Shown: positions 38,130-54,313, numbered from the stretch's first letter. The stretch: DNA of 64,000 nucleotides from an uncultured bacterium (GCA_963851445.1 CAWKPH010000001.1:553363-617362); one strand, 5' to 3'. A program made the numbers and translations. The notes: generated by a model not told the origin, from the sequence alone.

Positions 38130-38200
38130 GGGAAGTGAGTATAAAAAGAAAACCACCCCTCCGCAGAAACAAAGACATTATGTCTTCATTTTCGCAGAGA
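38130..38200 (+). repeat. Cassette-array repeat, short variant B1 (GGGAAGTGAGTATAAAAAGAAAACC + palindrome)
   Basis: It shares the GTATAAAAAGAAAAC segment with family A. About 40 nt are nearly identical to the copy at ~44591. Confidence 0.6.
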
Positions 38201-38221
38201 GGCGATCACTGTCGAGTTGGC

Positions 38222-38479
38222 TCAGGACCCTTCTTCGGTGAAAGATCCGCTGCCGAACCCGCCTGCCCGGACGAGCGTGTAACACATGAGGCCGCCGAGC
38301 ATGAGAATAATTCCTATAAGCATGATGCCGACGGGAACCCATTCAGACGGCGCCTTCATTTTAGGAAGGAACAGCACCAGGATGCCGATGACGTCCAAGA
38401 AAAGACCGATGCCGCCCGCCACGCCGTACGGAACAGAAGCCTTGAAGCGCTTAAGCTCAACAACTTCGGGATCAACCAT
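38222..38479 (-). CDS. Small membrane protein, 85 aa (cassette gene)
   Basis: Two TM helices. On the minus strand a TTGACA-N18-TATATA promoter lies between repeat A1 and the ATG. Confidence 0.5.
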   Translation of the reverse strand: MVDPEVVELKRFKASVPYGVAGGIGLFLDVIGILVLFLPKMKAPSEWVPVGIMLIGIILMLGGLMCYTLVRAGGFGSGSFTEEGS

Positions 38480-38512
38480 GATTAAATCTCCAGCTAAGGA
38501 TGGCAAATTCTT

Positions 38513-38546
38513 TGTTATATAATCATAATAATGAGTAATTGTCAAG
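38513..38546 (-). promoter_or_regulatory. Sigma70-like promoter (TTGACA N18 TATATA) immediately downstream of repeat A1
   Basis: Read on the minus strand: GCGGAGCCCAAATTAAAC TTGACA attactcattattatgat TATATAA. It precedes the 38222..38479 gene. Confidence 0.5.
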
Positions 38547-38556
38547 TTTAATTTGG

Positions 38557-38631
38557 GCTCCGCATGATAGAGGACGTTAGAACGTGTTTTGTATAAAAAA
38601 TCGCCGAGCCCCTTTCGGAACACGGCGACAC
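38557..38631 (+). repeat. Cassette-array repeat A1 (GCTCCGCATGATAGAGGACGTTAGAACGTGTTTTGTATAAAAAA + hairpin)
   Basis: Full-length family A copy. The following hairpin TCGCCG...CGGCGA plus T-run on the minus strand acts as the terminator of 38632..39132. Confidence 0.8.
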
Positions 38632-39132
38632 TTATTTCAATAGATCGATATGTTCAACTTTTATGTCGTAGAAGATTTTAAGTAACCCTCTGAAACACAA
38701 AATCATCAACTCCAACCAATCCGAACGCATTATGTAGAAATGCCAGCGTATTGTTAATCTCAACGTCTTATCATCGGTATCACGAGTGACTATACCGAGG
38801 AGATTGCGTTCGAGAGGAGGAAAATGAGTCGTAATACACACTTCCTTTTGTGTACTTGAGTAGGTGCTTTCATTCCGTGCTTCGCGTAAAGCAGCCATAG
38901 CTCGCAGTACCGCCGGATTTTCCTGATCCATGCACTGGAGCACTGTTAAACCCTGTTCTACGTTTCTCCGACATTTCTGCTGGATTCCTTCGAGTATGGC
39001 GTCATGCAAACGAGGCTTGAAGAGTGCCCTAAACGGAATGGCAAAATAGCACCAAATATAAAGAACGATGCCTCCTAACACTGACGTAACAAGAAGCAAT
39101 AGTGGCAACCCGTATTCCTGAATCGGATGCAT
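38632..39132 (-). CDS. Hypothetical protein with N-terminal TM helix (cassette gene)
   Basis: 166-aa ORF. The minus-strand promoter GCGGAGC TGACAA ... TATATT sits right after repeat A2. Confidence 0.5.
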   Translation of the reverse strand: MHPIQEYGLPLLLLVTSVLGGIVLYIWCYFAIPFRALFKPRLHDAILEGIQQKCRRNVEQGLTVLQCMDQENPAVLRAMAALREARNESTYSSTQKEVCITTHFPPLERNLLGIVTRDTDDKTLRLTIRWHFYIMRSDWLELMILCFRGLLKIFYDIKVEHIDLLK

Positions 39133-39188
39133 TCTGCACCTCTAAGGTTCAAATTCAAACTAAATATAACACAGTATTCAGAATTGTC

Positions 39189-39232
39189 AGCTCCGCCTCG
39201 TGTATGAGGTTAGAACCTGTTTGGTATAAAAT
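39189..39232 (+). repeat. Cassette-array repeat A2 (GCTCCGCCTCGTGTATGAGGTTAGAACCTGTTTGGTATAAAAT)
   Basis: Variant with a CCTC..GAGG mini-hairpin. It ends 6 nt before the ATG of the plus-strand gene. Confidence 0.8.
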
Positions 39233-39238
39233 ACACCA

Positions 39239-39697
39239 ATGACTCCTCCAAAGGTTACCCCTCTCAAACTCGAAACCTACCTGGCTGTCATTAAGAACAG
39301 TGTTGGTACCCGCATGTTCCGCACCTACTACGCCCTCGTCGACGGGAAGCGGAAAGACATCATGCGTCAGGGTGAACTCTCCTGTGCTTTCTTTGTTTCT
39401 TTCATTCTTTCTGGATTCTCTTTAATTGAAGGCATGCACGGAACCGTCGAAGGCACGGTGAAAGATCTCAAAGCCTCTGGTTGGAGACATACAAAAACTA
39501 TTCGAATTGGATGTGTGATTGTATGGGAACCTATAAAAGGAGATAGAGGGGAAGTACATAGGCATATCGGCTTCTATGTGGGAAATGGGAAAGCCATCAG
39601 CAACGACTACAAGAAGGGAATGCCACGTCTCCATCCCTACAAGACTCGGAAGATTACAGGACTCTATTGGAACTCTAAACTAAATAGCTCCGCATGA
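39239..39697 (+). CDS. NlpC/P60-like (papain-fold) hydrolase domain protein (cassette gene, inverted orientation)
   Basis: Candidate Cys in ELSCAFFV and the HIGFYVGNGKAISN His motif resemble C40 peptidases. The last codons SSA and the TGA stop are supplied by repeat A3 (AGCTCCGCATGA). Confidence 0.45.
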   Translation: MTPPKVTPLKLETYLAVIKNSVGTRMFRTYYALVDGKRKDIMRQGELSCAFFVSFILSGFSLIEGMHGTVEGTVKDLKASGWRHTKTIRIGCVIVWEPIKGDRGEVHRHIGFYVGNGKAISNDYKKGMPRLHPYKTRKITGLYWNSKLNSSA

Positions 39698-39714
39698 TAG
39701 AGGACGTTAGAACC
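39687..39714 (+). repeat. Cassette-array repeat A3 (truncated: GCTCCGCATGATAGAGGACGTTAGAACC)
   Basis: The left half of the family A box only. Confidence 0.7.
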
Positions 39715-39757
39715 TACGTCTCATGATTTTCTCACGAGAATAAGGTATACTCTGCAT

Positions 39758-39931
39758 ATGTTTATGTTTTCCAAGAAATCACAGAAAAAGAACCTCCAGG
39801 AAGTTACCAAGAAGCAGCTCAAGAAAACCATGCCTGTGATTGAATCACTTCGCGACTACGATGCCGGAAAAAAGGACATTTCAACCCGTACCGCCCAACA
39901 GCGTCTGCCAAACATACGAGTTGCTCCGTAG
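39758..39931 (+). CDS. Small ORF (57 aa) upstream of and overlapping doc; candidate antitoxin, not Phd/YefM-like
   Basis: ATG-initiated and lysine-rich. It ends with TAG 11 nt inside the probable TTG start of doc. It is absent from the ORF track because it is under 60 aa. Confidence 0.3.
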   Translation: MFMFSKKSQKKNLQEVTKKQLKKTMPVIESLRDYDAGKKDISTRTAQQRLPNIRVAP

Positions 39932-40277
39932 TCAGGGGCTTGTATCGTTTGCACTCACCACTCAAGCGAAAGATAAGGTGGAAGCAATTGTTGCGAACAT
40001 AACCAACACTTACTATGGGCGCGAAATCTACGTAACGGCCGAGGAGAAGTCCGTTGCTTATTTGTATTTCCTCATAAAAGACCATCCTTTTACAGATGGC
40101 AACAAGCGTACTGCCTCACTCGTTTTTAGTATCCTTTGCGAATTAAATGAACTGACTCCACACTTTGGAAACGAAAATCCAACTCTCGATGAGCTTGCTG
40201 TATTCATCGAAAAGATTCAAGAGGAGGATCACCAATCGGTGATTCGACAGATTGCCGTCTTGATATTTGAGACATAG
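39840..40277 (+). CDS. doc: Doc (death-on-curing)/Fic-family toxin
   Basis: HPFTDGNKRTA matches the Doc-type HxFx(D/N)GNKR motif. Alternative starts are ATG 39861 or TTG 39921. Confidence 0.7.
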   Translation: MNHFATTMPEKRTFQPVPPNSVCQTYELLRSQGLVSFALTTQAKDKVEAIVANITNTYYGREIYVTAEEKSVAYLYFLIKDHPFTDGNKRTASLVFSILCELNELTPHFGNENPTLDELAVFIEKIQEEDHQSVIRQIAVLIFET

Positions 40278-40289
40278 GTTATTCGTTTT

Positions 40290-40372
40290 GCACTATAGAG
40301 GACGTTAGAACTTGTGTATATAAAAAGAAAACCACCTTTCTTAAGGGCAGTTTGTCTGGCTAGGTGATGGAA
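40290..40372 (+). repeat. Cassette-array repeat A4 (GCACTATAGAGGACGTTAGAACTTGTGTATATAAAAAGAAAACC + hairpin)
   Basis: Family A copy lacking the GCTCCGC head. The hairpin CCACC..GGTGATGG precedes the stop of 40379..40891. Confidence 0.7.
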
Positions 40373-40378
40373 ACAAAC

Positions 40379-40891
40379 TCACAGGATAAATACCTCATAC
40401 TCGCAACCATCAACCAGTAAGCCTTCACCACGATTGGGGAAAAAACTCCGATGAGGAACATTTTGTGTCCAATCGACTCTTCCACCCTGCATTTCGATGA
40501 GACGCCAAGCAAGCAGTACGGGAACCTCGTCATGACCAACGACGACAACGTTTTCCTCCATCTGCGCGGTTTCCAGAAGAGTGTCTAGGGCTCGTGTCGC
40601 GTACCCCTGTCCAGATTCTTCCTCCTTAGAGCCTACATAGGGAATAGAAACTCCCACGTGCTTGAGATTGCCGAAGGCGAACAGTATTGGGTGCAGTGTC
40701 GGTCGCTGACCAGAAAGAAGAAGGCGAGCTGTAGTCACACAGGCTTCATCTTCAGAGGTTAGAGCAAAAGTTGCTATGAAGTCTCGTTCGAGCAGCCATG
40801 TACGGGCTCGCTTGATGTCGTTAATCCCATCTACACTTAGGTCACGTCCCTGGCCAAGCTCGCCATGGCGCTGAAAGAAAAAGCGAGCCAT
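40379..40891 (-). CDS. Histidine phosphatase superfamily (SixA/PGAM-like) protein (cassette gene)
   Basis: N-terminal RHGE motif (QRHGELGQG) and a second His in VVVVGHDEV. Confidence 0.55.
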   Translation of the reverse strand: MARFFFQRHGELGQGRDLSVDGINDIKRARTWLLERDFIATFALTSEDEACVTTARLLLSGQRPTLHPILFAFGNLKHVGVSIPYVGSKEEESGQGYATRALDTLLETAQMEENVVVVGHDEVPVLLAWRLIEMQGGRVDWTQNVPHRSFFPNRGEGLLVDGCEYEVFIL

Positions 40892-40984
40892 ATGTCAATC
40901 CTCAATGAAGTTTCTTGGTACGTTATAGCACAATTTGTAGATTTTCAGCTCCCAAACATTACCTTAATATACCTTCCTCATTGG

Positions 40985-41042
40985 AAGGGGAGTGAGTGTA
41001 AAAAAGAAAACAGTCCACCGAAGCAGACTGCTTCGGTGGACT
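40985..41042 (+). repeat. Cassette-array repeat B2 (GGGGAGTGAGTGTAAAAAAGAAAAC + perfect 14-bp hairpin)
   Basis: Short variant. The hairpin GTCCACCGAAGCAG/CTGCTTCGGTGGAC plus T-run on the minus strand is a strong terminator for 41064..41336. Confidence 0.7.
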
Positions 41043-41063
41043 GGATTGACCTCTCAGGCGAGG

Positions 41064-41336
41064 TTAAGGGGTTATGCGGGCGAGGCATCCCAGATCAGCT
41101 TCGACCCGGGCATACTCACCAGGGGAGATCTCGAACTCGACGTCGAGGCAGTCTTCCACGAACTTCGCAATGCCATGCACAAGGCCGATGGTTCCTCCGC
41201 GAATCGCGGTGGTTGCTGGTCTGCCATCGGTCAGAAGTGGCGGTGGCGTACGACGGCCGCAAAAGGTTTGGGTGGCCTGCACGAGGTCGGCATAACAGTA
41301 GCCGCCGATTAGCTTCTTTTCCCGTTTCTGATTCAT
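41064..41336 (-). CDS. Hypothetical 90-aa protein, GC-rich (~60% GC) (cassette gene)
   Basis: The promoter GCGGAGCACAG TTGACA N16 TGATATAGAT and the 5'UTR are nearly identical to those of the 44663..45085 cassette. Confidence 0.45.
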   Translation of the reverse strand: MNQKREKKLIGGYCYADLVQATQTFCGRRTPPPLLTDGRPATTAIRGGTIGLVHGIAKFVEDCLDVEFEISPGEYARVEADLGCLARITP

Positions 41337-41431
41337 CGAATGCTCTCCGCGCTAGAATGAAAGGGTACAAACGGATTTAGATCCGAAGGTTCTCTTTATC
41401 TATATCATATAAAGTATATTCTGTCAACTGT

Positions 41432-41515
41432 GCTCCGCACAGTGCACCAGGTTAGAACCTGTTTGGTATAAAAAGAAAAGGACAGCTTCACACAAATGTG
41501 CGAAACCGTCCTGGT
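41432..41515 (+). repeat. Cassette-array repeat A5 (GCTCCGCACAGTGCACCAGGTTAGAACCTGTTTGGTATAAAAAGAAAAGG)
   Basis: Family A copy with an alternative middle segment. Confidence 0.75.
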
Positions 41516-41527
41516 GTCTCCCAATGC

Positions 41528-41941
41528 TTACTTACGGTTGGACGCCTTGGATGCCGCAGCCGAGGCCAGAGGAAGTGGTGCGGGGATTTCTCCATTGCCG
41601 TAGATTAGCCCGTCGCCTTGGAGGATGTTCGCGATGTCGCGGGTTCCGGAGAGTTTGACGACTGCGTATGAGCCATTCACGGGAACGTCGGTGACGATGC
41701 CGTCGTACTGCTTGCTGTTGATCTGGAGTTTCACCTCTTTCGAGCAGAAGTCCGTGCCGATGCAGTGACAGTAGTCTACGCCTTCACGGCAGGAGTTGCT
41801 GAACTGCCTCGACTGCGCGTACGGGTCTACCTCGCCGCCCGGGAACGGAAAGAGGTTGACCTTGAACGACACCTGGACCGTGCAGTCCTTGCTGGGGTCA
41901 CAGTCGACGGCGTCGATAAACACAGCATGTTTATAGTCCAC
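41528..41941 (-). CDS. Lipoprotein-like protein (cassette gene); the N-terminal signal peptide is apparently separated by a 1-nt frameshift (41942..42050)
   Basis: In the track frame, upstream of the called start, the sequence reads SPLALGACSDNSSS (lipobox LALGAC). MKMILVTCAAISA is encoded in another frame 30 codons upstream. Confidence 0.45.
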   Translation of the reverse strand: MDYKHAVFIDAVDCDPSKDCTVQVSFKVNLFPFPGGEVDPYAQSRQFSNSCREGVDYCHCIGTDFCSKEVKLQINSKQYDGIVTDVPVNGSYAVVKLSGTRDIANILQGDGLIYGNGEIPAPLPLASAAASKASNRK

Positions 41942-42172
41942 TTCGGCATGACCTAGGCTAGTCGAGGCCTCTGCCTTGCTCGACGAATTGTCGCTGCAAG
42001 CGCCAAGTGCGAGCGGAGATTGCCGCGCAAGTAACTAGGATCATTTTCATCTCAGTCTCTTTCCGTGGGGGGTTTCAGATCGATAGGAACAAATTCACTT
42101 CGGAGTCTAGTATGACATGTTAAGATTTCATGTCAAGTTCACGTTATGTTTCAATACCTTGGAATCATCCTG

Positions 42173-42247
42173 GCTCCGCATGATAGAGAACCTTAGAACA
42201 TAGCTGGTATAAAAAGCCACCCAGTCCGCTTTCGCGAAAGGGTGGCA
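42173..42247 (+). repeat. Cassette-array repeat A6 (GCTCCGCATGATAGAGAACCTTAGAACATAGCTGGTATAAAAAG + hairpin)
   Basis: Family A copy. Hairpin GCCACCC..CTTTCGCGAAAG..GGTGGC. Confidence 0.75.
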
Positions 42248-42272
42248 GTTGATCAGTTTTGAGATGCTAAAC

Positions 42273-43322
42273 CTACTTATGGCCAAGCGCTCTCCAATTG
42301 TTCTTGGTCTTGGTGGCATAGATACGTCCCGTTGGTCGTGTAGACCCGAGATACGGGAGCCGTGCCTTGTCCCAAAGCCATTTCCTCCCCGCATCCCGCG
42401 CGAACGCCGGTTTGTTATGGGCCGTGGCAATGTATTCCACAAGATCCACATCGCTTGTACGCCAGACCCGCTCGAGAGTCTTCAGTTCGCGTTCGTTGAG
42501 ACTCGCAATCAGATCGGCCAGGTTAGAAACCGCAAAAAGATATGCAGCCTTAGCGTGGTCGTCTGAACGAAGCCGCATGACACTCCCCGGTATCCTAAGA
42601 TTTGAAGGAAGAGAATGGTTGGCTTTTGAGGCGCCGTTCTGGTGTCCGTGGGCGTCGTAGATGGCGAATGGAGTGAACTGGAACGGTCCAAAGCTAGTGA
42701 TCCCGTCATGTATCGCCGGGATACTTTCCACGAAACGACGACCCCCGTGCCGAAGCAGGAAGTCAAAGTAATCGCGATTGAAGGCACCGTTGTAGCGACC
42801 GGGCAAGAGCTCAGTCATGGCGTATGCCACAAGTGAACGTCCGCCAATATGACTGGAGATCTGCTTGAGCAGCTTGAGCTTGCGCTCAGTTAGACGGTAG
42901 TGCTGGCCGAGTTGTTGCCAATCGAGGTGCGTCTGTAGAAGATGCGCATCCTCGCTAGCATCTGTCTCATACTGGCGAATCGGCATCCTTCCCGGATCTT
43001 TCGTCCGGTATTCAGAAATTAACTGCCGAGCCGTTGCTATAACCGTGCGGCTGTCGCCGTGATTGTTTTCTTTTGCCGTCCACAGCGCGACAAGCCGCTT
43101 GTCCCAATCGACACAAAGTCGAGAGGGGATCACATCATTGCGGCTGCTCAGTCCGATGTAATCGGCGTATAAGTCTGAACCGCGATGTCCGGCAAGGCGA
43201 CCGGTACTGTAGCAACCAGCATGTGAGCTGGTCGTGCGATACGTGGTCACAGCCATTGTCCCGAGAGGGAAGATGGCCATGCCCAGAGCCGCAAGTGCGG
43301 CATATGGTTTCAATGATCTCAT
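42273..43322 (-). CDS. Secreted hypothetical protein, 349 aa (cassette gene)
   Basis: Signal peptide MRSLKPYAALAALGMAIFPLGTMA. The promoter TTGACA N17 ATTATA abuts repeat A7. Confidence 0.5.
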   Translation of the reverse strand: MRSLKPYAALAALGMAIFPLGTMAVTTYRTTSSHAGCYSTGRLAGHRGSDLYADYIGLSSRNDVIPSRLCVDWDKRLVALWTAKENNHGDSRTVIATARQLISEYRTKDPGRMPIRQYETDASEDAHLLQTHLDWQQLGQHYRLTERKLKLLKQISSHIGGRSLVAYAMTELLPGRYNGAFNRDYFDFLLRHGGRRFVESIPAIHDGITSFGPFQFTPFAIYDAHGHQNGASKANHSLPSNLRIPGSVMRLRSDDHAKAAYLFAVSNLADLIASLNERELKTLERVWRTSDVDLVEYIATAHNKPAFARDAGRKWLWDKARLPYLGSTRPTGRIYATKTKNNWRALGHK

Positions 43323-43429: not shown

Positions 43430-43492
43430 GCTCCGCCTCGTGTATGAGGTTAGAACCTATGTATAAAAGAAAACCCGCTGAAGCAGGTTTAG
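43430..43492 (+). repeat. Cassette-array repeat A7 (GCTCCGCCTCGTGTATGAGGTTAGAACCTATGTATAAAAGAAAACC + hairpin)
   Basis: Family A copy with the CCTC..GAGG mini-hairpin. Confidence 0.8.
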
Positions 43493-43514
43493 AATAGTTG
43501 ATGAGTTTCACGCC

Positions 43515-43990: not shown

Positions 43991-44060
43991 GCTCTGCCTC
44001 TGCTATGAGGTTAGTGGGTGGTATGAAAAGAAAAAGCCCCCATACCGAAGCAGGGAGGTG
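43991..44060 (+). repeat. Cassette-array repeat A8, degenerate (GCTCTGCCTCTGCTATGAGGTTAGTGGGTGGTATGAAAAGAAAAAGCC)
   Basis: It retains CCTCTGCTATGAGGTTAG and TATGAAAAGAAAA. Confidence 0.6.
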
Positions 44061-44481: not shown

Positions 44482-44590
44482 GTACCTTGGTCATTCCAAG
44501 GTATTGAACCATGCGGAATCTGAGCAGAATCTAGCACAGTTGCACAAGGGTTCCAACATCACCCGAAAGAATATTCGGTTGGCAGTTGTA

Positions 44591-44660
44591 GAAGTGAGTA
44601 TAAAAAGAAAACCACCCCTCCGTCGAAACGAAGAAGTGATCTTCGAATCGCCGAGGTGGC
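44591..44660 (+). repeat. Cassette-array repeat B3 (GAAGTGAGTATAAAAAGAAAACCACCCCTCCG + hairpin)
   Basis: Near-identical to B1 over ~40 nt. The spurious plus-strand ORFs 38135..38485 and 44471..44959 both translate this segment as SIKRKPPLRRN. Confidence 0.65.
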
Positions 44661-44662
44661 GG

Positions 44663-45085
44663 TTAGCGGAAGGGATCGCCAGAAACAATCTCGCCCCGCG
44701 TCTCCCCGCTGATCTTGCCGTCGATGTAGTCCATCTCGGATTGCTCCGCGCGTTCGTTAGGGTCCTCCATAAGATAAATATGGATCTCCCGCCGCACCTG
44801 GTTTTTCAGCCAGAAGAAACTCGGAACGAAGCTCACGCCGGTGATGACCAATGTGAACGCATTGAGTACCCTCCAGCTGAAGTGACCGATATGACTCTCG
44901 AGCCACGGCGGTCCAGGCATGAGGGTGGAAGCGATGACCACCCCGAGCAATATCGCTGAGAGAGCGGTCACCCTCTCCCTGTCGCTGAACTTTAGATAGA
45001 TGAGGGCAAAGCCGTAGCCACCCAAAACACCAGCGACGAGGTACGAGTAGCCCCAGGGCCACAAGTCTTGCCAGTGGGCAAACAT
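44663..45085 (-). CDS. Membrane protein, 140 aa (cassette gene)
   Basis: 3-4 TM helices. The promoter GCGGAGCACAG TTGACA N16 TGATATAGAT abuts repeat A9. Confidence 0.5.
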   Translation of the reverse strand: MFAHWQDLWPWGYSYLVAGVLGGYGFALIYLKFSDRERVTALSAILLGVVIASTLMPGPPWLESHIGHFSWRVLNAFTLVITGVSFVPSFFWLKNQVRREIHIYLMEDPNERAEQSEMDYIDGKISGETRGEIVSGDPFR

Positions 45086-45189: not shown

Positions 45190-45265
45190 GCTCCGCATGA
45201 TAGAGGACGTTAGAACGTGTTTGGTATGAAAAATCGCCGACGCATCGCTTATGAGCGATAGCAAG
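45190..45265 (+). repeat. Cassette-array repeat A9 (GCTCCGCATGATAGAGGACGTTAGAACGTGTTTGGTATGAAAAA + hairpin GCATCGCT..AGCGATAGC)
   Basis: Full-length family A copy. Confidence 0.8.
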
Positions 45266-45333: not shown

Positions 45334-45561
45334 ATGTATGCTTTCCGCATTGTTGGAGATTTCGCCGGTCTTATCGGAGCCCTGTGCGGCATGGCCGGGG
45401 TGATACTTTTGCTTTATGGTTGGCACTGTCACAATCGTGCATACAAATCAGCAACTACTGTGGCTGAGTGGCGCCGCGTTGCCCTGGTTTGGTCATGGTC
45501 TGCGTGGCTTCTTGTCCTCTCAGTGGGACTCACAGGGGTGCCAAACCTGCTCATCAAGTAG
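45334..45561 (+). CDS. Small membrane protein, 75 aa (cassette gene, inverted orientation)
   Basis: Two TM helices. It has its own TTGACA-containing promoter region at ~45272. Confidence 0.4.
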   Translation: MYAFRIVGDFAGLIGALCGMAGVILLLYGWHCHNRAYKSATTVAEWRRVALVWSWSAWLLVLSVGLTGVPNLLIK

Positions 45562-45638: not shown

Positions 45639-45716
45639 GCCTCGCATGATAGAGGACGTTAGAACATGTTTGGTATGAAAAAGCCCGCATTGCTGCGAGC
45701 TCAGAATGAGAAGGGT
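45639..45716 (+). repeat. Cassette-array repeat A10 (GCCTCGCATGATAGAGGACGTTAGAACATGTTTGGTATGAAAAAG)
   Basis: Family A copy. Confidence 0.8.
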
Positions 45717-46265: not shown

Positions 46266-46325
46266 GATTGCCTCCTGTGTAATTCCCGATTTCAGTATAC
46301 GATCTGCCCTCGATTTGTCAGCCCC

Positions 46326-46418
46326 GTCACGTATGACGTAAGAACTTGTAGGGTATGAAAAGAAAAAGACCGCCTCCCCGAGACACCGGAAAGACAGTCT
46401 CTGCAGAGAAGCGGTCGT
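46326..46418 (+). repeat. Cassette-array repeat A11, divergent (CGTCACGTATGACGTAAGAACTTGTAGGGTATGAAAAGAAAAAG + long hairpin GACCGC...GCGGTC)
   Basis: The mini-hairpin is replaced by CGTCA..TGACG and TTAGAAC becomes TAAGAAC. The terminator hairpin lies just before the stop of 46429..46770. Confidence 0.6.
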
Positions 46419-46790: not shown

Positions 46791-46838
46791 GCTCCGCGCA
46801 GTGCATGAGGTTAGAACGTGTATGTAAAAGAAAAAACC
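46791..46838 (+). repeat. Cassette-array repeat A12 (GCTCCGCGCAGTGCATGAGGTTAGAACGTGTATGTAAAAGAAAAAACC)
   Basis: Family A copy. Confidence 0.75.
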
Positions 46839-47320: not shown

Positions 47321-47377
47321 TCGACTACCTCTTGTTGATCTAAGTGAGTTATATCACTTTTTTATTTTTTTCAGATC

Positions 47378-47442
47378 CACCTCTGTCATGAGGTTAGAAC
47401 CTATGTATAAAAGAAAACCGCCCAATTGCTTGGACGGCTTGG
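47378..47442 (+). repeat. Cassette-array repeat A13 (CCTCTGTCATGAGGTTAGAACCTATGTATAAAAGAAAACC + hairpin CCGCCCAA..TTGGACGG)
   Basis: Family A copy lacking the GCTCCGC head. Confidence 0.7.
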
Positions 47443-47463: not shown

Positions 47464-48018
47464 TTAGAAAATCTCATGAATGAAGCCGAGCTCTTTGGCT
47501 TCTTCGGCACTCATATCCCGATCTTCCGCAAGCAGCTTACGCATCCTGCGAATCGGCATGCCGGTTTTGTCAGAATACATGCGAACGATTGTTTCTTCTT
47601 GCTTAACTGCTTCATCGATGAGTTCCTGCATTCGAGCTTTGCTTTTGACTGAGCTCGTTGGAAGGTTCATCCATGAGTGCCGCCCTTCGTGAACAAGTAT
47701 TGTTGAACCTTCTTCACAAAGGCGACGATCACACATGAGAAGTATCGTTACCGCTGCAGATCTCGCAGCGCCATAGACACGAACGGTCTTGTGGCCCATG
47801 TAGTCTTGCAGAAGCCGAGCGATGAAAAGGCCAGCTCTTTCGTACCCGCCATGACTTGATAGACGTATTTGTATAGCGGGCGAGTCGCGCGCTGTGAGGA
47901 CGGTCATGGCCGCAAGCACATACTCGGCCATTTGTTGGTCGACCTCCCCTTGAAGGAAGAGAGTATTCTTATCCAGCAGCTCTCTTTCGAGACCTGTCAT
48001 GCAATTGTCTAGCGACAT
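47464..48018 (-). CDS. ClpP-like (S14 family) serine protease (cassette gene)
   Basis: GAARSAAVTILLMCD (Ser region) and VHEGRH (His region) line up with the ClpP catalytic motifs. Promoter GCGGAGC ATAAA TTGACG N16 TATTAT. Confidence 0.55.
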   Translation of the reverse strand: MSLDNCMTGLERELLDKNTLFLQGEVDQQMAEYVLAAMTVLTARDSPAIQIRLSSHGGYERAGLFIARLLQDYMGHKTVRVYGAARSAAVTILLMCDRRLCEEGSTILVHEGRHSWMNLPTSSVKSKARMQELIDEAVKQEETIVRMYSDKTGMPIRRMRKLLAEDRDMSAEEAKELGFIHEIF

Positions 48019-48090: not shown

Positions 48091-48150
48091 GCTCCGCCTC
48101 ATAGAGGATGTTAGAACGCGGGTGGTATGAAAAACCGCCCTTTCTTGAGG
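48091..48150 (+). repeat. Cassette-array repeat A14 (GCTCCGCCTCATAGAGGATGTTAGAACGCGGGTGGTATGAAAAACC + hairpin CCGCCCT..AGGGACGG)
   Basis: Family A copy. Confidence 0.8.
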
Positions 48151-48173: not shown

Positions 48174-48530
48174 TCAGAGTCCGTTTCGAGCGTAAAAGTC
48201 CTGAGAAGCTTTGGCGTATGCGGTCGGATCGCCATTGAGCTTTACGACACGGCTGATCATTCCCAACGACCCGCTCCCTTTGAGGCTTCTCAGAACATCA
48301 AGACTACCGTTTGCAAGGTCGATGCGTTCTGGAAAGCCATTCTTGTAGTAGATGTCGCCGCTGCAAGATACGGGATTCGACTCACAGCCCTCCACCCATG
48401 CAGAGACTTCTGCGGGGGGTGGGGAATTGGAGGACGATACGCTGTGATGCTTGCCAAGAACGGCGTGAAAATAGAGGATGGCAAACACGACGATTAGTCC
48501 AAGGAAAAGGTACCGACCACGCATATCCAA
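48174..48530 (-). CDS. Secreted hypothetical protein (likely start ATG at 48524) (cassette gene)
   Basis: Signal peptide MRGRYLFLGLIVVFAILYFHA. Promoter TTGACA N17 ATAATA and SD AGGAGG. Confidence 0.5.
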   Translation of the reverse strand: MDMRGRYLFLGLIVVFAILYFHAVLGKHHSVSSSNSPPPAEVSAWVEGCESNPVSCSGDIYYKNGFPERIDLANGSLDVLRSLKGSGSLGMISRVVKLNGDPTAYAKASQDFYARNGL

Positions 48531-48608
48531 AACCCCTCCTTAGGGCAGTAGCATGAACATTCTGACTGCATCTATTATGCAAAGGTCACAATGCATGTCA
48601 AGTATAAG

Positions 48609-48692
48609 TGCTCTGCTATGAGGTTAGAACGCGGGTATGAAAAAAGCCGCCCGGAGCACAACGAAGTAAACTCCGGGGGCTTCAGGCGGTCA
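48609..48692 (+). repeat. Cassette-array repeat A15 (GTGCTCTGCTATGAGGTTAGAACGCGGGTATGAAAAAAG + hairpin GCCGCCCGGAG..CTCCGGGGGC)
   Basis: Family A copy. The hairpin plus T-run on the minus strand terminates 48690..49529. Confidence 0.75.
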
Positions 48693-49630: not shown

Positions 49631-49716
49631 GCTCCGCCTCTGCTATGAGGTTAGAACGTGGGTATGAAAAAACCGCAAGAGAGGGGATTGGACCCTCGTC
49701 CTGCGGCGTCAAAGGT
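49631..49716 (+). repeat. Cassette-array repeat A16 (GCTCCGCCTCTGCTATGAGGTTAGAACGTGGGTATGAAAAAACC + hairpin)
   Basis: Family A copy. Confidence 0.8.
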
Positions 49717-49731
49717 AGTTCTTGCTCGATC

Positions 49732-50406
49732 TCAAACGTACCCTTTGGTTCGTGCCCGTGCGTACATGCTCTCCGCATCAGCCTTTAGCTCCTCGAGGAG
49801 GTGACTGTTCACGGTGAGGGAACTAGGGGCGTCTAACGAGTCAGCTACCTGTCCAACCAGAGCGCCTTCCTGATTTATCATTGGGCTGCCCGACAATCCC
49901 GGATGGATTCCCGGAATCTCGAACAGTCGCACATCCCGAGCACGATCGCGGCTACCAATCCAAATTGCCGATTTGATGATGATGTCCGTGGCACAGCCTG
50001 TAAGGTGGGTATCAGCCAGCGTGCCTTTCCATGCCACCTCGAACCGGTCCTCGGACGACCCCACCACATATTCGGGAATTGCTATAGGCTCGCCCTCACT
50101 TAGAGAGATTGCCCATGGCAACGGCTCGGCGACAAGTGGCCTTTGCAGAATCGCGATGGCACAGTCAAGGTTCTTGGAGAAAGCGACGTTCGGTACAGCA
50201 CAGCGCATGTCGGTTGATACGTGCCGAGCAATTACTGTTTCCGGCACGGCACCAGTAAAATTATGTGCACAGGTAAGGGTGGCGCGGCGGTTGGGGAAGC
50301 AGGCAAAACCAGAACCCCATCCAACCGTCCCATCTTGCTTCCCGATGGTAAAAATGACCATCGCCTGCCGAAGCTGTTGAAGAACTTGTTGGCGGAATAG
50401 GCTCAC
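49732..50406 (-). CDS. Trypsin-like (S1 family) serine protease (cassette gene)
   Basis: His LTCAHNF, Asp DCAIAIL and Ser GLSGSPM motifs. Confidence 0.6.
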   Translation of the reverse strand: MSLFRQQVLQQLRQAMVIFTIGKQDGTVGWGSGFACFPNRRATLTCAHNFTGAVPETVIARHVSTDMRCAVPNVAFSKNLDCAIAILQRPLVAEPLPWAISLSEGEPIAIPEYVVGSSEDRFEVAWKGTLADTHLTGCATDIIIKSAIWIGSRDRARDVRLFEIPGIHPGLSGSPMINQEGALVGQVADSLDAPSSLTVNSHLLEELKADAESMYARARTKGYV

Positions 50407-50465
50407 CTTGCGACCCTTTCATGTCTGATTCCGAAGGGACTATAGCATGGAAATCGAAATTGTCT

Positions 50466-50540
50466 GCTCCGCATGATAGAGGACTTTAGAACGTGTTTGG
50501 TATAAAAAAGGCCACCGAAGGGGTTCCGGTGGGTGAGACT
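50466..50540 (+). repeat. Cassette-array repeat A17 (GCTCCGCATGATAGAGGACTTTAGAACGTGTTTGGTATAAAAAAGG + hairpin CCACCGAAGG..CCGGTGG)
   Basis: Full-length family A copy. Confidence 0.8.
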
Positions 50541-50552
50541 TAGCCTCGAGGA

Positions 50553-50894
50553 TTACTTGTTGCTGCTGATTTGTTTCAGCACACCTGGGCTGCAGGGAAC
50601 CCAGGTGATGGTCATGCTGTCGGCATTGGCCTTGCCCAGCTCTGCACTCATGGTGACGCCATAGCACTCGCCGGAGAGAGAGTCTTTCACGTAGGTGACC
50701 TTGGCCACCGCGGCGCTGGCTGTTTCTGGGTCTGGCTTGCGGGTCTGCACGCCGCACGCACTGAGCGCGAGAACGGAGGACAGAACAACACCGACTTTCA
50801 AGCTTGAGCGGATGCTCATGATATGTCTCCTAAATAGGAACAGTTGCCGAACTAATACTACAGTGACAGTAGGATAGGCACAGTATGTTGTCAA
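50553..50894 (-). CDS. Lipoprotein (likely start MSIRSS..., lipobox LSAC) (cassette gene)
   Basis: Signal peptide and LALSAC G lipobox. Confidence 0.5.
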   Translation of the reverse strand: MTTYCAYPTVTVVLVRQLFLFRRHIMSIRSSLKVGVVLSSVLALSACGVQTRKPDPETASAAVAKVTYVKDSLSGECYGVTMSAELGKANADSMTITWVPCSPGVLKQISSNK

Positions 50895-50963
50895 GATTTG
50901 CTCCCCGATGTGGGAATCTTTATAAAATGAAAAAGGTCGGCACTTGCATGCCGACCCACCAAC

Positions 50964-51701
50964 CTAGTCCCCCTCAACTAAGTATTTAGAAATCCAGCCC
51001 TCCTCACGCGCGATGTTGACGACTCGAGAGGACTCATTGTGCGTCAAGCCGTATTTGGTCTCAAGTCCGCGACGCAAGGCCTCTGTTCTACCGCCAAACA
51101 CCATGAACTCTCCATCAGAATCTTCGAAGCCGAGTTCGCGGAGTAGATCTCGGGTCTTCCACACCGTTTGCCAAAAACGAGTCCGCAGGTCATGTTCGAG
51201 AGACTCTGGTGCTCCGCGGTCTGTATGAAGTGCAAGCAGCTCGCTGACCGTTGGGCGCCTAAAGCGCAGGAACTCCTGATCATTAGGCGCAAAATCATCA
51301 ATGTAGCTCTCCATACACAGGATCAGCTCGAGTGAGACTGTGGGGAGGCCTATTGCCGGCTGCCTCAAGAGCTCTTCCTTTGAGAAAGCTCGTAGAATTT
51401 CTGGTGTCACAGTAGTTTGAGGCATGAAGGGCCAGTCAAAACGAGTCAATCCGAGATCGGTAAGTTTGCGCGTAAAAGTACGCATGGGCGAAGTTGCTTT
51501 GTAGTGACGGATATACTGACGAGAGCTATACAAGACTTGCTCAACCGTAATTACAGAGCAAAGCCATGCCTCGTTCCTTTTTCGTTCTTCAGTATCCTCG
51601 CCAAGAGGTCGACACGCTCTTCGAATCAATTCACTGGTGCTGGTGGAACGCAACCCCAACTGCTCAATAGTCATGTGAAAGATCTGTTCCTTGAGGCTCA
51701 T
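50964..51701 (-). CDS. Hypothetical protein, 245 aa (cassette gene)
   Basis: No recognisable motifs. It is the last minus-strand module before the degenerate repeat A18. Confidence 0.45.
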   Translation of the reverse strand: MSLKEQIFHMTIEQLGLRSTSTSELIRRACRPLGEDTEERKRNEAWLCSVITVEQVLYSSRQYIRHYKATSPMRTFTRKLTDLGLTRFDWPFMPQTTVTPEILRAFSKEELLRQPAIGLPTVSLELILCMESYIDDFAPNDQEFLRFRRPTVSELLALHTDRGAPESLEHDLRTRFWQTVWKTRDLLRELGFEDSDGEFMVFGGRTEALRRGLETKYGLTHNESSRVVNIAREEGWISKYLVEGD

Positions 51702-51795
51702 GGCCTTCTCCTGTCTAGTATCGCTTCCAGGGTCGGAATGCGATATAAAGCTTACCCTAGTGCATTTTGCGTACTAGTCAATAAATACCGACGAC

Positions 51796-51835
51796 TAGTG
51801 CTATGAGATTAGAACGTGTTTGATATAGAGGAAGG
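51796..51835 (+). repeat. Cassette-array repeat A18, degenerate (CTAGTGCTATGAGATTAGAACGTGTTTGATATAGAGGAAG)
   Basis: Retains TATGAG-TTAGAACGTGTTTG. Confidence 0.55.
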
Positions 51836-51846
51836 GCGTATTTGAG

Positions 51847-51879
51847 GGGTTTACAATGAGCCAAAAAGGGGTTTACAAT
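51847..51879 (+). promoter_or_regulatory. Direct repeat GGGGTTTACAAT x2 (22-bp periodicity) upstream of 51887 gene; possible -35/-10 (TTTACA N17 TACAAT) or operator
   Basis: Two identical 12-mers 10 nt apart. They end 8 nt before the ATG. Confidence 0.4.
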
Positions 51880-51886
51880 AACTTTA

Positions 51887-52903
51887 ATGGCAGATGACAA
51901 AGGGGCAGTCGTTGACTTTATATTCAAGAATGTTGAAGAGCATACAACAGATATTGCAGCTCTGCTTGTCCAAGAATTTGGATTTTCCAGACAAAGAGCC
52001 AATTTCTACCTGTCTAGAGAAGTAGAAAGAGGGACACTAATACCTTTTGGGAATACTCGAGCAAGACGTTATTTCCTTGCGGGAGGGAGCCATATTGAAT
52101 TTCAGTTGCCTTTAGAAGGGCTTTCAGAGGATAGGGTTTGGCTAAGATATATAAAACCAATGGTGCTTGCATATCCAAACAACATCTTGCGAATAGCGAA
52201 TTATGGTTTTACTGAGATATTGAACAATGCGATAGACCATTCAGGTGGAACGAGTGCATATGTGAGCCTACAGCGTACGCAGGGAAAGCTTCAATTCACA
52301 ATAATGGACAACGGTATTGGTATATACGAAAAAATAAAACAAGCCCTAAACTTAAGCTCTCCTCGTGAAGCGATACTTCATTTGTCAAAAGGGAAGTTCA
52401 CCACCGATCCATCAAACCATACGGGGCAAGGTATATTCTTCACCTCAAGGATTTTTGATAAGTTTTCAATCTCGTCGGACGACATGTATTATTCTTTTTC
52501 AGGTATGGAATGGTTTCTTTCTAACGAAAAACCAGAGAAGTTTGGTAATGGAACTTCTATACAAATGGAAGTGTCGCTAGATTCAAAAATAACACCAGAA
52601 GAAATAATGGATAAATACTCAGATTTGGAAATAGGGTTCACGAAAACGATAGTCGCAGTGGCTCTGAGTGAAGATCCTAACGACCCACACGTATCTAGAT
52701 CTCAAGCAAAGAGACTAATGATGGGGTTAGAGAAATTTCAAACCATTGTTCTTGATTTTAAGGGAGTAGGATCGGTCGGCCAGGCCTTTGTAGATGAGGT
52801 TTTTAGGGTATTTCAAAATGAATATCCTAATATTAGAATCCAATATATTAATGCAAATCCAGAAGTCGATTTGATGATTAAGAGAGGCCTAGCAACAGGT
52901 TAA
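51887..52903 (+). CDS. GHKL-type ATPase domain protein with C-terminal DUF4325/STAS-like domain
   Basis: ILNNAIDHSGG (N box) and IMDNGIGI (G1 box). C-terminal VVLDFKGVGSVGQAFVDEVFRVF. Confidence 0.5.
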   Translation: MADDKGAVVDFIFKNVEEHTTDIAALLVQEFGFSRQRANFYLSREVERGTLIPFGNTRARRYFLAGGSHIEFQLPLEGLSEDRVWLRYIKPMVLAYPNNILRIANYGFTEILNNAIDHSGGTSAYVSLQRTQGKLQFTIMDNGIGIYEKIKQALNLSSPREAILHLSKGKFTTDPSNHTGQGIFFTSRIFDKFSISSDDMYYSFSGMEWFLSNEKPEKFGNGTSIQMEVSLDSKITPEEIMDKYSDLEIGFTKTIVAVALSEDPNDPHVSRSQAKRLMMGLEKFQTIVLDFKGVGSVGQAFVDEVFRVFQNEYPNIRIQYINANPEVDLMIKRGLATG

Positions 52904-52909
52904 TTAGGA

Positions 52910-53164
52910 TTAAAATCGCAAAAGTTCCCAGCTCTCCATACGAAGGGCACGTGCAAGTCGCTCAATCGTGCCAAGAGTAAGATTTGCTTCTCCGCGCTCA
53001 ATCATTCCAATGTAGTTTCTGCTCAGTCCAGCGACTGAGGCTAGCGATTCTTGACTCAAACCTCGTCGGAGGCGTTCGTTTCTAAGCTTCTTGGCGAAAC
53101 GGGTAAGAACGGTTGACAACCTATCCATACCTGATGGTATTCGTAAACGGCCTACGTGAGGCAC
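52910..53164 (-). CDS. XRE-family helix-turn-helix transcriptional regulator
   Basis: LRRGLSQESLASVAGLSRNYIGMIERGEANLTLGTIERLARAL. Confidence 0.75.
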   Translation of the reverse strand: MPHVGRLRIPSGMDRLSTVLTRFAKKLRNERLRRGLSQESLASVAGLSRNYIGMIERGEANLTLGTIERLARALRMESWELLRF

Positions 53165-53249
53165 GGGAAATAAATCCAGCGTTCGAACCTAAAAATATCC
53201 TTGATTTGTCTGACGAAAATGAGGTTTTTGCCTCAATTCGTCCTAGAAT

Positions 53250-53290
53250 GCTCCGCATGTTGGTCGATGTCAGAACCTAAAAAATGAAAG
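53250..53290 (+). repeat. Cassette-array repeat, degenerate remnant (GCTCCGCATGTTGGTCGATGTCAGAACCTAAAAAATGAAAGG)
   Basis: Retains GCTCCGCATG, CAGAAC and an A-run. Confidence 0.45.
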
Positions 53291-53404
53291 GATTCTGGCA
53301 GCAACCGATCTGGGAGTGTGGTCACAGAATACCAAAGGGAACGATGTTGATAGTACTCCGTTACCAAAAGAGCGTCAAACGCAATATCGGTGTAAACTGT
53401 CTCC

Positions 53405-53953
53405 ATGTCCGATGGTAAAACCATAGAAGAACGTGCCAAGGAGTACGACGAGATTCGTAAGAATGCTGAAGAGCTCTACGCTACTTTCAAGCCTGTTAAA
53501 TGTCTCGCTCTTGGTGGCGAAATTGTGCATTTTACCTCAGAAGGCTTCAATCACCTTGTCTACGATAAGCCGAAGAAGATGCGAGATTTGCGTGCTCAGA
53601 TACTGAGATTCGATATGCTTGAAAGAGCGAAGTTTATTATCGAAACCTCAACGACCTATCAAGAGTATGATGAGGACATACGATACAAGAAGGTGAATAG
53701 GCACGGTAAGTATATTGAGATGCCTGTCATGGTACGTACCTGGGGACTGGTGGCAGTGGTCAGAAACTTTCGTGTAAAAGTCGTCATCAAGCAAGAAGGT
53801 AACGGCAAGAAAGAGTTCTATAGCGTCATACCTGCCTGGTTTACGAAGCAGTACCGAGATATAAAAATGATCCAGAGTTCGACTGGCAAAGGTCTGCTTT
53901 CAGAAGATGATGATGAGGTACTAAAAAACGCCACACAAGGTGGCGCTCTTTAG
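53405..53953 (+). CDS. Hypothetical protein, 182 aa
   Basis: ORF with a lysine-rich middle. No motifs. Confidence 0.4.
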   Translation: MSDGKTIEERAKEYDEIRKNAEELYATFKPVKCLALGGEIVHFTSEGFNHLVYDKPKKMRDLRAQILRFDMLERAKFIIETSTTYQEYDEDIRYKKVNRHGKYIEMPVMVRTWGLVAVVRNFRVKVVIKQEGNGKKEFYSVIPAWFTKQYRDIKMIQSSTGKGLLSEDDDEVLKNATQGGAL

Positions 53954-54235
53954 TATGTCTGTCTCCAGCTCAGAAATTGGCCAGATAGGACTGACGTCCC
54001 GCAGACACCTCACCAGTATACACTTTTGACGCAAGGAGACAAGGTTGTACACAGCCTGAAATATGCCCTACACAAAGCTTCACAGGAGCTTCATTTGGGC
54101 TGGCCGATTTTTAAGACAATTGCTCGAATAAACAAAAAACTCCCCCATAGGGAAGTTCTTTGGCAGAGTAGCGAGCAAACGAGATGCTCGTTCACTCCCG
54201 CAACGCGGCTCTCGGTATACCCGTAAGCGTGGGAG

Positions 54236-54287
54236 GGGAAGGGAGTATAAAAGAAAAAGCCTCGCAACCAGATGTTGCGAGGCTCCC
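54236..54287 (+). repeat. Cassette-array repeat B4 (GGGAAGGGAGTATAAAAGAAAAAG + hairpin GCCTCGCAAC..GTTGCGAGGCT)
   Basis: Short variant. The hairpin plus TTTTCTTTTATAC on the minus strand terminates 54314..54868. Confidence 0.65.
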
Positions 54288-54313
54288 GTGGCTAATCGGG
54301 CTAAGCCTGAATC

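Follow-up and report, generated by a model that had tools for sequence, protein, structure and literature searches.

The stretch of DNA analysed here (the window, 64 kb, part of a 687,765-bp contig of an uncultured bacterium) holds, between about 38,092 and 54,259, an island of small genes that are separated by co-oriented copies of a short repeat. This island, its repeats and their counterparts in other genomes are the subject of this work. The chromosomal genes of the window encode DnaG, HisRS, an AddA-type helicase-nuclease and glycan enzymes. The closest named homologues of HisRS and of an ABC permease are from Pacebacteria/Paceibacterota, Parcubacteria, Minisyncoccia and the "Patescibacteria group", and the host chromosome belongs to the Patescibacteria. 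These ultra-small bacteria, most of them uncultured, live in dependence on hosts with very small genomes, and their ways of gaining and exchanging genes are poorly known.

A direct-repeat search over 36-58 kb returned families with 9-12 co-oriented copies each, of which families D1-D10 are copies of the junctions between genes. The copies, all on the plus strand, coincide with the starts of the core-type and degenerate junctions in Table 1 or lie just inside them (at 46338, 48611 and 51796). The octamer GTTAGAAC, with one mismatch allowed, was found on the plus strand only. To avoid circularity a profile hidden Markov model (HMM) was built from 75 sites that all come from other genomes. Run on the window, it found 17 copies with E<1e-3, all in plus orientation and inside 38,556-53,289, and no significant match in the rest of the 64 kb. 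Chance is excluded by the frequency of the heptamer GCTCCGC, which occurs 20 times in the window against 8.1±3.1 expected; 13 of the 20 matches lie in the island on the plus strand. The co-oriented repeat island described in the initial annotation is therefore real. The strong copies have in common a 27-bp core, GCTCCGC-N12-GTTAGAAC, within a site of about 45 bp, whereas the pattern GTATRAAAAAGAAAA proposed earlier is matched, as written, by few copies. The positions in the earlier list of copies were found again, but the copy at 39687, which was counted among the head-less or degenerate ones, has a complete head and lacks the tail, and a junction at 50900-50936 was missing from that list. The latter resembles GCTCCCCGATGTTGGCGCAC at L022:110 (labels of the form Lnnn denote loci or contigs of other genomes).

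The short variant that had been reported at four places was present at 38130, 40989, 44591 and 54236 in the direct-repeat search. These positions belong to a second type of junction (38092, 40948, 44550 and 54194), which starts with GCTCC or GTTCC/ACTCC, continues with about 45 nt of its own sequence and then shows GGAAGTGAGTATAAAAAGAAAAC and a hairpin; it may be the half-site of another recombinase subfamily. Strong, degenerate and second-type junctions and the one at 50900 add up to 24, as the claim of at least 24 copies had it, but they delimit 23 intervals and not some 25 modules. The spacing is 436-1454 bp instead of the 400-1200 bp estimated before. Each interval holds a single gene except for two that hold two genes, while the pair of a small open reading frame (ORF) and doc had been taken as the sole exception.

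The cassette proteins have no paralogues among themselves, so they do not form one paralogous family, an outcome that had been named as speaking against mobile cassettes. All window proteins tested were singletons. In comparisons with Pfam, NCBIfam and PADLOC most cassettes matched no family, and the families found were Doc/Fic, ClpP-like, trypsin-like, HATPase+DUF4325, helix-turn-helix (HTH) and a weak LPD3. Most of the proteins are small; several are membrane-, secreted- or lipoprotein-like, two are protease-like and one is a toxin. The functions assigned earlier held for the proteases (ClpP-like and trypsin-like) and the Doc/Fic toxin, but the supposed NlpC/P60-like protein (most likely 39239-39697) has no Pfam match and no tested cassette matched a phosphatase family. 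The GC content of the cassette genes ranges over 39-58%, so it does vary sharply as noted before, although the example chosen then was inaccurate: 41064..41336 has 58% and not ~60%, and its neighbours have 51% and 58% and not ~45%. In 17 of the 23 intervals the gene is on the minus strand.

Three cassettes or pairs of cassettes have peculiarities of their own. In the unit at 41528-42049 a lipobox signal peptide (MKMILVTCAAIS..LALGAC, 41942-42049, minus strand) is one base out of frame with the downstream ORF 41528-41941, which makes it either a frameshifted lipoprotein cassette or an assembly error. One interval combines a low-GC (39%) gene for a HATPase_c+DUF4325 (STAS-like) protein, which has no PADLOC match, with a divergent HTH_3 partner. 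A promoter/5'-leader module (D14) that is 94% identical between 41383-41431 and 45142-45189 precedes two unrelated cassette genes, 41064-41336 and 44663-45085; the shared stretch stops at GCTCCGCA.

Read along the minus strand, a unit starts with a TTGACA-N16-17-TATAAT-like promoter, followed by a leader and the gene, a GC-rich hairpin with a T-run, and TATAC-N5-8-GTTCTAAC-N12-GCGGAGC. On the map the promoter-like sites of the minus strand thus lie just left of the core and strong minus-strand terminators just right of it. Terminator-like sites numbered 35 against 17.8±4.2 expected, with the strongest adjoining the junction sites; promoter-like sites were mildly enriched (26 against 18.2±4.0). 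Most cassettes bring their own promoter-like site and terminator-like hairpin. The boundary element of the initial annotation consequently needs to be redrawn. Its conserved block stands and has a sharp left edge at GCTCC, but the variable hairpin is part of the cassette: the GC-rich hairpin with AAAAGAAAA on the minus strand is the predicted intrinsic terminator of the neighbouring cassette gene, and AAAAAGAAAA is the T-run of that terminator. The TAA of GTATAAAA is the stop codon of a recombinase reading frame that is described below.

Table 1. Junctions and cassettes of the island in map order (D numbers, direct-repeat families; HMM, profile built from sites of other genomes).
Feature	Position	Strand	Evidence or remark
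Junction, second type, leftmost, GCTCC-CAACATCAC ... GGAAGTGAGTATAAAAAGAAAAC	38092..38153	+	D8, D10; terminator-like hairpin after
Small membrane protein	38222..38482	-	No Pfam match; listed ORF start over-extended into site
Junction, GCTCCGC-N12-GTTAGAAC + GTGTTTTGTATAAAAA, frame LRMIEDVRTCFV-stop	38557..38599	+	HMM E=9.7e-11
166 aa, no family	38632..39132	-	Promoter-like CTGACA-16-TATATT at 39190-39163
Junction, frame LRLVYEVRTCLV-stop	39190..39232	+	HMM E=9.6e-10
152 aa, no family; stop inside next GCTCCGC	39239..39697	+	No Pfam or NCBIfam match
Junction, complete core, without GTATAAAA tail	39687..39723	+	HMM E=1e-9
Two-gene cassette: small ORF 39758-39931, Doc/Fic toxin 39840-40277	39758..40277	+	Pfam Fic 2.3e-10; PADLOC PDC-S23 1.6e-19
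Junction, degenerate head GTTTTGC	40285..40320	+	HMM E=1.4e-4
170 aa, no family	40379..40891	-	No Pfam, PADLOC or NCBIfam match
Junction, second type	40948..41011	+	Repeat family; strong minus-strand terminator 41043-41011
90 aa, GC 58%	41064..41336	-	No Pfam match; GC count
Junction, frame LRTVHQVRTCLV-stop, T-arm-like CAGG-TTAGAA-CCTG	41432..41475	+	HMM E=2.6e-7
Lipoprotein cassette, signal peptide out of frame with ORF	41528..42049	-	Sequence; no Pfam match
Junction	42173..42215	+	HMM E=1.9e-5
349 aa, no family	42273..43322	-	Promoter-like TTGACA-16-TATTAT at 43421-43394
Junction	43430..43471	+	HMM E=5.9e-9
131 aa	43515..43910	-	
Degenerate junction, GCTCTGC...GTTAGTGGG	43991..44035	+	D5, D7
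130 aa	44089..44481	-	
Junction, second type	44550..44612	+	D8, 93% to 38132
140 aa membrane protein	44663..45085	-	
Junction	45190..45232	+	HMM E=1.3e-9
75 aa membrane protein	45334..45561	+	Promoter-like 45272-45300, terminator-like 45567-45597, both +
Junction, head GCCTCGC	45639..45680	+	HMM E=7.5e-6
182 aa	45717..46265	-	
Degenerate junction GTAAGAAC	46319..46361	+	HMM E=0.14; D3
113 aa	46429..46770	-	
Junction	46791..46834	+	HMM E=5.4e-6
155 aa	46853..47320	-	
Junction, head GATCCAC	47374..47414	+	HMM E=8.6e-4
ClpP-like protease	47464..48018	-	Pfam CLP_protease 3.8e-22
Junction	48091..48133	+	HMM E=1.3e-8
118 aa, secreted or membrane	48174..48530	-	
Junction, degenerate head	48604..48645	+	D5 reference copy; HMM E=0.73
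279 aa	48690..49529	-	
Junction	49631..49672	+	HMM E=1.3e-4
Trypsin-like peptidase	49732..50406	-	Pfam Trypsin_2 1.1e-8
Junction TTTAGAAC	50466..50508	+	HMM E=2e-8
Small lipoprotein-like cassette	50553..50822	-	
Junction, other subtype, GCTCCCCGATGTGGGAATC-TTTATAAAATGAAAAAG + hairpin	50900..50936	+	Read from sequence; minus-strand terminator 50957-50934
245 aa	50964..51701	-	
Degenerate junction ATTAGAAC	51789..51831	+	D3, D5
Two-gene cassette: HATPase_c+DUF4325 51887-52903 (+, GC 39%), HTH_3 52910-53164 (-)	51887..53164	.	
Junction GTCAGAAC, rightmost of core type	53250..53289	+	HMM E=3e-5
182 aa, weak LPD3 match	53405..53953	+	Pfam
Junction, second type, rightmost seen	54194..54259	+	D10; terminator 54287-54255

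The exact pattern GCTCCGC-N6-KAKGAS-GTTAGAAC was scanned in other sequences. With one genome per species it occurred at 7 loci, six of them labelled Patescibacteria and one Gammaproteobacteria, and a metagenome scan added 37 contigs; no viral contig contained it. An early-gene region of a phage with repeated promoters was rejected as an explanation of the window, given the housekeeping genes, the lack of a phage-record match and the absence of the site from viral contigs. The 27-bp core is known from about 50 Patescibacteria contigs and is often arrayed: about 20 contigs have 2-6 co-oriented copies with one or two unrelated genes, in either orientation, between them. Conservation between loci is limited to the site itself. 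Unrelated genes beside the same boundary in many genomes bear out the earlier view of a cassette island with a non-canonical boundary element.

The site is also the end of a gene. On the plus strand the frame from core base 2 always reads L-R-(L/M/I/W)-(V/I/L)-(E/D/Y/H)-(D/E)-V-R-T, corresponding to a C-terminus W-LRxxEDVRT, and array copies extend this frame to C-F/L-V-stop. At L029, L021 and L025/L038 it forms the end of a protein of 509-530 amino acids with Resolvase, Recombinase and Zn_ribbon_recom domains, a set by which the protein is classified as a large serine recombinase (LSR). The site further adjoins or ends the LSR gene in L047 and L048-L050, and about 20 of the 120 family members have it in their tails. 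The information profile of 88 distinct sites has an abrupt left edge at the G of GCTCC, stays high to +33 and shows a 3-nt period in which second codon positions are highest (xTx xTx GAx GAx). At the single-copy loci of the species scan a terminator precedes the site and a remnant of the recombinase tail follows it; L005 and L006 differ by synonymous changes, and we read these loci as left ends of integrated LSR elements. L044 (1-1606) has four sites within 1.6 kb, and just 131 nt separate two of these. The same terminator hairpin stands before every one of the four, and behind some there is a coding remnant that resembles the recombinase tail.

The LSR of L029 has 1541 homologues at E<=1e-20. 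The best 120 of these are 70-82% identical over about 95% of the query, i.e. up to ...PNW, and their tails differ beyond the conserved tryptophan. Most tails read WLRG-stop or WLRG(L/Q)DSN(Q/L)RP..., as a tRNA 3' end does in reverse complement, with W as CCA, LRG as the acceptor stem and DSN as the T-loop. The majority of the family thus terminates within tRNA-Asn on the other strand. About 10 have the array-type core, such as the LSR-family proteins P0005 (...WLRILDDVRTCC) and P0076, and about 10 a related FRT-type core (WLPLVDKFRT.NW...). In L023, L051 and L053 ARAGORN predicted a tRNA-Asn(GTT) on the opposite strand that overlaps the LSR stop codon. In elements of 8-9 kb the LSR gene comes last, after restriction-modification genes and the gene of an HTH_17 protein, a candidate directionality factor. 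Directly upstream of the LSR, HTH_17 and type II/III restriction-modification genes were observed at L048 5198-11557, L051 7068-11518 and L053 5227-11542. A comparison of the tRNA sequence GCTCCGG-N7-GATCGAAC-CTAC with the array sequence GCTCCGC-N12-GTTAGAAC-CTGT showed that the acceptor-like heptamer, the T-loop-like octamer and part of the T-stem are kept. The array site would thus derive from the opposite strand of the tRNA-Asn 3' end, where TGG corresponds to CCA, GCTCCGC to the acceptor stem and GTTAGAAC to the T-loop.

The ends of whole elements point to the position of strand exchange. In L051 and L053 the right end reads ...AACTG-GCTCCG(G/T)-N7-GATCGAAC and is that of the tRNA proper. 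Some 9 kb upstream, the left end is made up of a bidirectional terminator, GCTCC(C/G)(C/T)-N12-TTCAGAAC and a tail-coding stretch. Because the two ends have GCTCC alone in common at equivalent positions (plus the next two bases in L053), crossover probably takes place inside GCTCC. The immediate divergence of LSR proteins after W agrees with this placement, as do the sharp left edge of the information profile and the window junctions at 41432 and 45190, which share their left flank up to GCTCCGCA and then differ. A crossover in TTAGAA, with AG in the centre, had been considered on account of the palindromes ACG-TTAGAA-CGT and AGG-TTAGAA-CCT and the pair L018/L022; it was replaced by GCTCC because of the L051/L053 ends and the protein divergence after W.

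Flanks reassort at this boundary in other genomes, where the same core and right flank stand behind unrelated left flanks; this too agrees with a crossover in GCTCC, and it supports the earlier view of a cassette island. L025/L038, in which an LSR precedes the site, and L046, in which a terminator precedes it, are 100% identical to the right of the site, and L038 and L046 come from one metagenome. The pairs L018/L022, L017/L005 and L011/L024 also combine the same right flank with different left flanks.

The distance from GCTCC to the octamer is 14 nt in array sites (GTTAGAAC) and 9 nt in tRNA sites (GATCGAAC), a shift of 5 bp. In the sites of LI integrase the motif for the zinc-ribbon domain occupies half-site positions 16-24 in attP and 11-19 in attB, which is also a 5-bp shift (PMC3783163). 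With CT or TC of GCTCC taken as the central dinucleotide, the octamer would occupy positions of about 16-24 in an array site and of about 11-19 in the tRNA. By analogy, the conserved block of the cassettes may be a P'-type arm and the tRNA a B'-type arm.

Arrays that are headed by the enzyme itself also exist. L048/L049 carry, after the LSR site at 11503, two more sites in the same orientation (12524 and 13179), and small genes on the minus strand lie in between; L047 has the LSR site, one cassette and a weak site. The L048/L049 layout is the platform-plus-cassettes arrangement of an integron with another enzyme and with the site within the coding end of that enzyme.

Taken together, the island of the window is probably made up of about 23 one- or two-gene cassettes in tandem, with attachment half-sites of the Patescibacteria LSR family as their boundaries. 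Each junction, read on the plus strand, would consist of the short crossover core GCTCC, a ~40-bp attP-type half-site to its right (GC-N12-GTTAGAAC-CTGTTTTGTA-TAA) and a heterogeneous left side. Where an LSR gene lies to the left of a cassette, the half-site would supply its last 12 codons (LR-h-h-acidic-acidic-VRT-CFV-stop). A single short segment of DNA thus appears to combine three roles, those of recombination half-site, tRNA mimic and end of the enzyme's coding sequence. On the gene strand a cassette would comprise a sigma-70-type promoter abutting the crossover core, one gene, and an intrinsic terminator abutting the half-site. An LSR acting in trans would insert or excise units or composites by cutting at a dinucleotide inside GCTCC, and the units may be mobile at present. 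Insertion beside a primary site (in relatives, tRNA-Asn or the 3' end of the LSR gene) would pile up units in one orientation.

Several observations weigh against this interpretation. A tblastn search of the 64 kb found no serine recombinase or remnant of one, ARAGORN found no tRNA in them, and they contain no tRNA-Asn remnant. For this reason the array is an orphan array, and its link to the enzyme rests on other genomes. Canonical LSRs recombine attP with attB only, so that an array in which every right arm is of the P' type is unexpected from repeated canonical integration. An LSR dimer should bind both half-sites, and the left arms of the junctions are nearly unconserved, with only T-richness at -3 to -1 and no clear counterpart of the shifted motif. 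L018:1313 and L022:110 are alike only from core position 21 on, which conflicts with crossover in GCTCC. The LSR family is remote from studied enzymes (E=3e-5 for the catalytic domain of TP901-1, at most 35% identity to phage records), and the half-site rules of LI integrase are carried over to it by analogy across that distance. For the window island no circle, empty site or strain-level presence/absence was seen, and the only other assembly of the same sample (Logan) has the same gene order.

Two relatives were compared at the ABC permease. In one, with an 86% identical permease, sites are absent up to 10 kb from the syntenic transporter, in a region where synteny is rearranged. In the other (L055; GCA_965072925.1, CBCIXX010000001.1), with an 85% identical permease, the 212-kb contig ends 470 bp past that gene. 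The island region of the window starts at the corresponding point, which would be consistent with an assembly that broke off in a variable stretch or in one rich in repeats.

The chief rival explanation is fossil accretion, in which the units would be the decayed cargo of full LSR elements at tRNA-Asn. Newer elements would have pushed older ones inward and the recombinases would have been lost, leaving the sites as scars and the single cassettes immobile. We consider this rather unlikely, though several observations speak for it. tRNA-Asn is indeed the integration target of 8-9-kb LSR elements that have restriction-modification cargo and leave a P'-type site at their far end; L023 shows the order sites, truncated LSR, tRNA-Asn; and the window array is without an LSR. 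The process has a documented counterpart in the tycheposon-built islands of Prochlorococcus, which grow by successive site-specific integration at one tRNA and are left with repeated att copies in the form of scattered partial-tRNA repeats; a minority of tycheposons use large serine recombinases, and their hosts are streamlined (10.1101/2020.12.28.424599). The window array resembles them in the repeated att copies throughout an island and in the streamlined host genome. Unlike partial tRNAs, however, its repeats are a mimic expanded by 5 bp that also encodes the recombinase C-terminus, and its units are single genes with a regular layout of promoter, gene and terminator, in contrast to multi-kb elements that contain replication modules and debris. 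The hosts belong to different phyla as well, and no tRNA lies beside the window array, whereas L023, L051 and L053 do abut tRNA-Asn. The compact, debris-free units argue against fossil accretion: they uniformly consist of a promoter, one gene and a terminator within 436-1454 bp, there is no recombinase debris in 16 kb, and 17 of about 20 sites still score E<1e-3 with a profile from other genomes. In most units the -35 box of the promoter abuts the crossover core, which random decay would not yield.

Other serine recombinases are known to build arrays. In SCCmec and related staphylococcal cassette chromosome (SCC) elements, LSRs (CcrAB/CcrC) form tandem arrays at the 3' end of rlmH with direct repeats that copy the 3' end of the gene, and SCC elements without a recombinase can be moved in trans. 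The Ccr enzymes recombine several att pairings, the kind of permissiveness that the window array would need. SCC elements differ in that their units are of 3-60 kb with few per array, their target is a host protein gene, and the proteins are not closely related. Phage serine integrases (A118/LI, Bxb1, phiC31) share the domain set and short sites with the LSR family described here, and the displacement of one motif by 5 bp between two classes of half-site recalls that of the zinc-ribbon-domain motif between attP and attB (PMC3783163). They are remote in sequence and insert one prophage per site instead of forming arrays, and a site inside the integrase coding end with swapping of tails, as found here, is unusual.

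A shared regulatory element (an operator, UP-like element or bidirectional terminator module) that co-regulates a gene cluster without recombination would account for the position of the repeat between terminator and -35 box in most units and for the mild enrichment of promoter-like sites. This explanation is improbable since the distance from GCGGAGC to TTGACA varies from 1 to ~34 nt and the copies at 39687, 40285 and 45639 have no following promoter. Nor would a regulatory element be expected to have codon periodicity, to form the in-frame 3' end of LSR genes, to replace a tRNA 3' end or to mark the point where flanks reassort. A selfish intergenic repeat spread by transposition, of the repetitive extragenic palindromic (REP) or miniature inverted-repeat transposable element (MITE) kind, would likewise be short, intergenic and provided with small internal hairpins. 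We regard it as very improbable: the copies keep one orientation throughout, are confined to 16 kb of the 64 kb, lack terminal inverted repeats and are tied to LSR genes and tRNA-Asn. Rfam gave no match at gathering thresholds and, at E<=1 over 37.5-57 kb, one chance-level match off the sites.

The initial annotation likened the island to integrons and to clusters of attC sites lacking an integron integrase (CALIN), and the likeness is considerable. In both, co-oriented cassettes are short, unrelated and mostly orphan genes that include a toxin-antitoxin pair; a recombinase with a primary site beside it can head the array, as in L048; and recombinase-free orphan arrays exist. GTTAGAA even fits 6 of 7 positions of the R' consensus GTTRRRY when read from the sequence. 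Membership is a different matter, and a true integron or CALIN with attC sites diverged past recognition is hardly credible. The absence of R''/R' ends noted earlier was confirmed at the junctions, since the 16.4 kb from 38,001 to 54,400 contain one chance RYYYAAC...GTTRRRY pair per strand and neither is at a junction. GTTAGAAC has no inverted partner near any site. The attC-like folding of the bottom strand that had been suggested was not found: DNA folds of 14 sites on both strands gave no common structure pairing the core, and the recurrent elements were limited to a T-arm-like stem of 3-4 bp at TTAGAA and the separate hairpin of the terminator. No tyrosine recombinase had been seen, and indeed no tested window ORF matched any recombinase family, while the enzyme in relatives is a serine recombinase and not the tyrosine recombinase IntI. 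The sites are of a double-strand type of ~45 bp with one conserved arm, as opposed to folded attC hairpins of 57-141 bp, and the primary site is within the 3' coding end of the recombinase or tRNA-Asn. The cassettes have their own promoter and terminator, unlike integron cassettes that rely on the promoter Pc. The array would work like an integron or an SCC-type accretion site and is a member of neither.

The ~28-bp motif, often a single copy behind a bidirectional terminator in other genomes, could also be a chromosomal dif site, with cassettes that exploit XerC/D in the manner of pdif modules. Modules resembling integrative mobile elements exploiting Xer (IMEX) were at first favoured because ~28 bp are conserved between loci, and this idea was dropped when the LSR C-termini were found in frame. 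Like the integron, it now has next to no probability: single copies precede LSR-tail remnants and act as left ends of LSR elements, the information profile is one-sided and not an 11-6-11 dyad, the weak resemblance to E. coli dif arms (by eye, no tool) puts the two arms 2 nt out of register, and cumulative GC skew passes through a minimum here instead of a maximum. In pdif modules small gene modules lie between short host-type recombination sites, as here, but pdif sites alternate in orientation and have the 11-6-11 dyad, whereas the present sites are co-oriented, one-sided and tied to a serine recombinase.

We tentatively propose, as a conjecture that goes further than the reading of the island itself, that Patescibacteria have a serine-recombinase counterpart of the integron. 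At its centre would stand a conserved LSR whose primary site lies in tRNA-Asn or in the 3' coding end of the LSR gene itself, and which would take up, store and set free cassettes of one gene each that provide for their own expression. The attP-type half-site of every cassette would both imitate a tRNA 3' end and contribute the C-terminal codons of the enzyme, and the system would act in trans on orphan arrays such as that of the window. No published description of serine-recombinase cassette arrays was found in the literature on dif/Xer in the candidate phyla radiation (CPR), LSR cassettes, integron-like LSRs and LSRs at tRNA-Asn. If true, such a system would be a second, independent invention of the integron idea and would explain the origin of some hypervariable, orphan-rich regions in Patescibacteria genomes. 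Islands of this kind can be sought in metagenomes with the site as a simple sequence probe, and the LSR family may yield serine integrases with unusual pairing rules for engineering.

Further features were observed beside the sites and outside the island. Group I introns (RF00028) occur within ~1 kb of sites on two Patescibacteria contigs, at L003 889-1229 (plus strand, 88 bits) and L007 3328-3605 (minus strand, 65 bits). To the right of the island another repeat without an Rfam match brackets the ORF 55375-55725 (copies 55311-55389 and 55729-55833; D11, D13). It consists of 47 nt at 98% identity with the hairpin GGGGAGAAACGAGTTCTCCC, followed by 35 nt at 83%. Over the glycosyltransferase/polysaccharide cluster at 61000-64000 the GC content falls to 35-40%, and this cluster may have been acquired separately.

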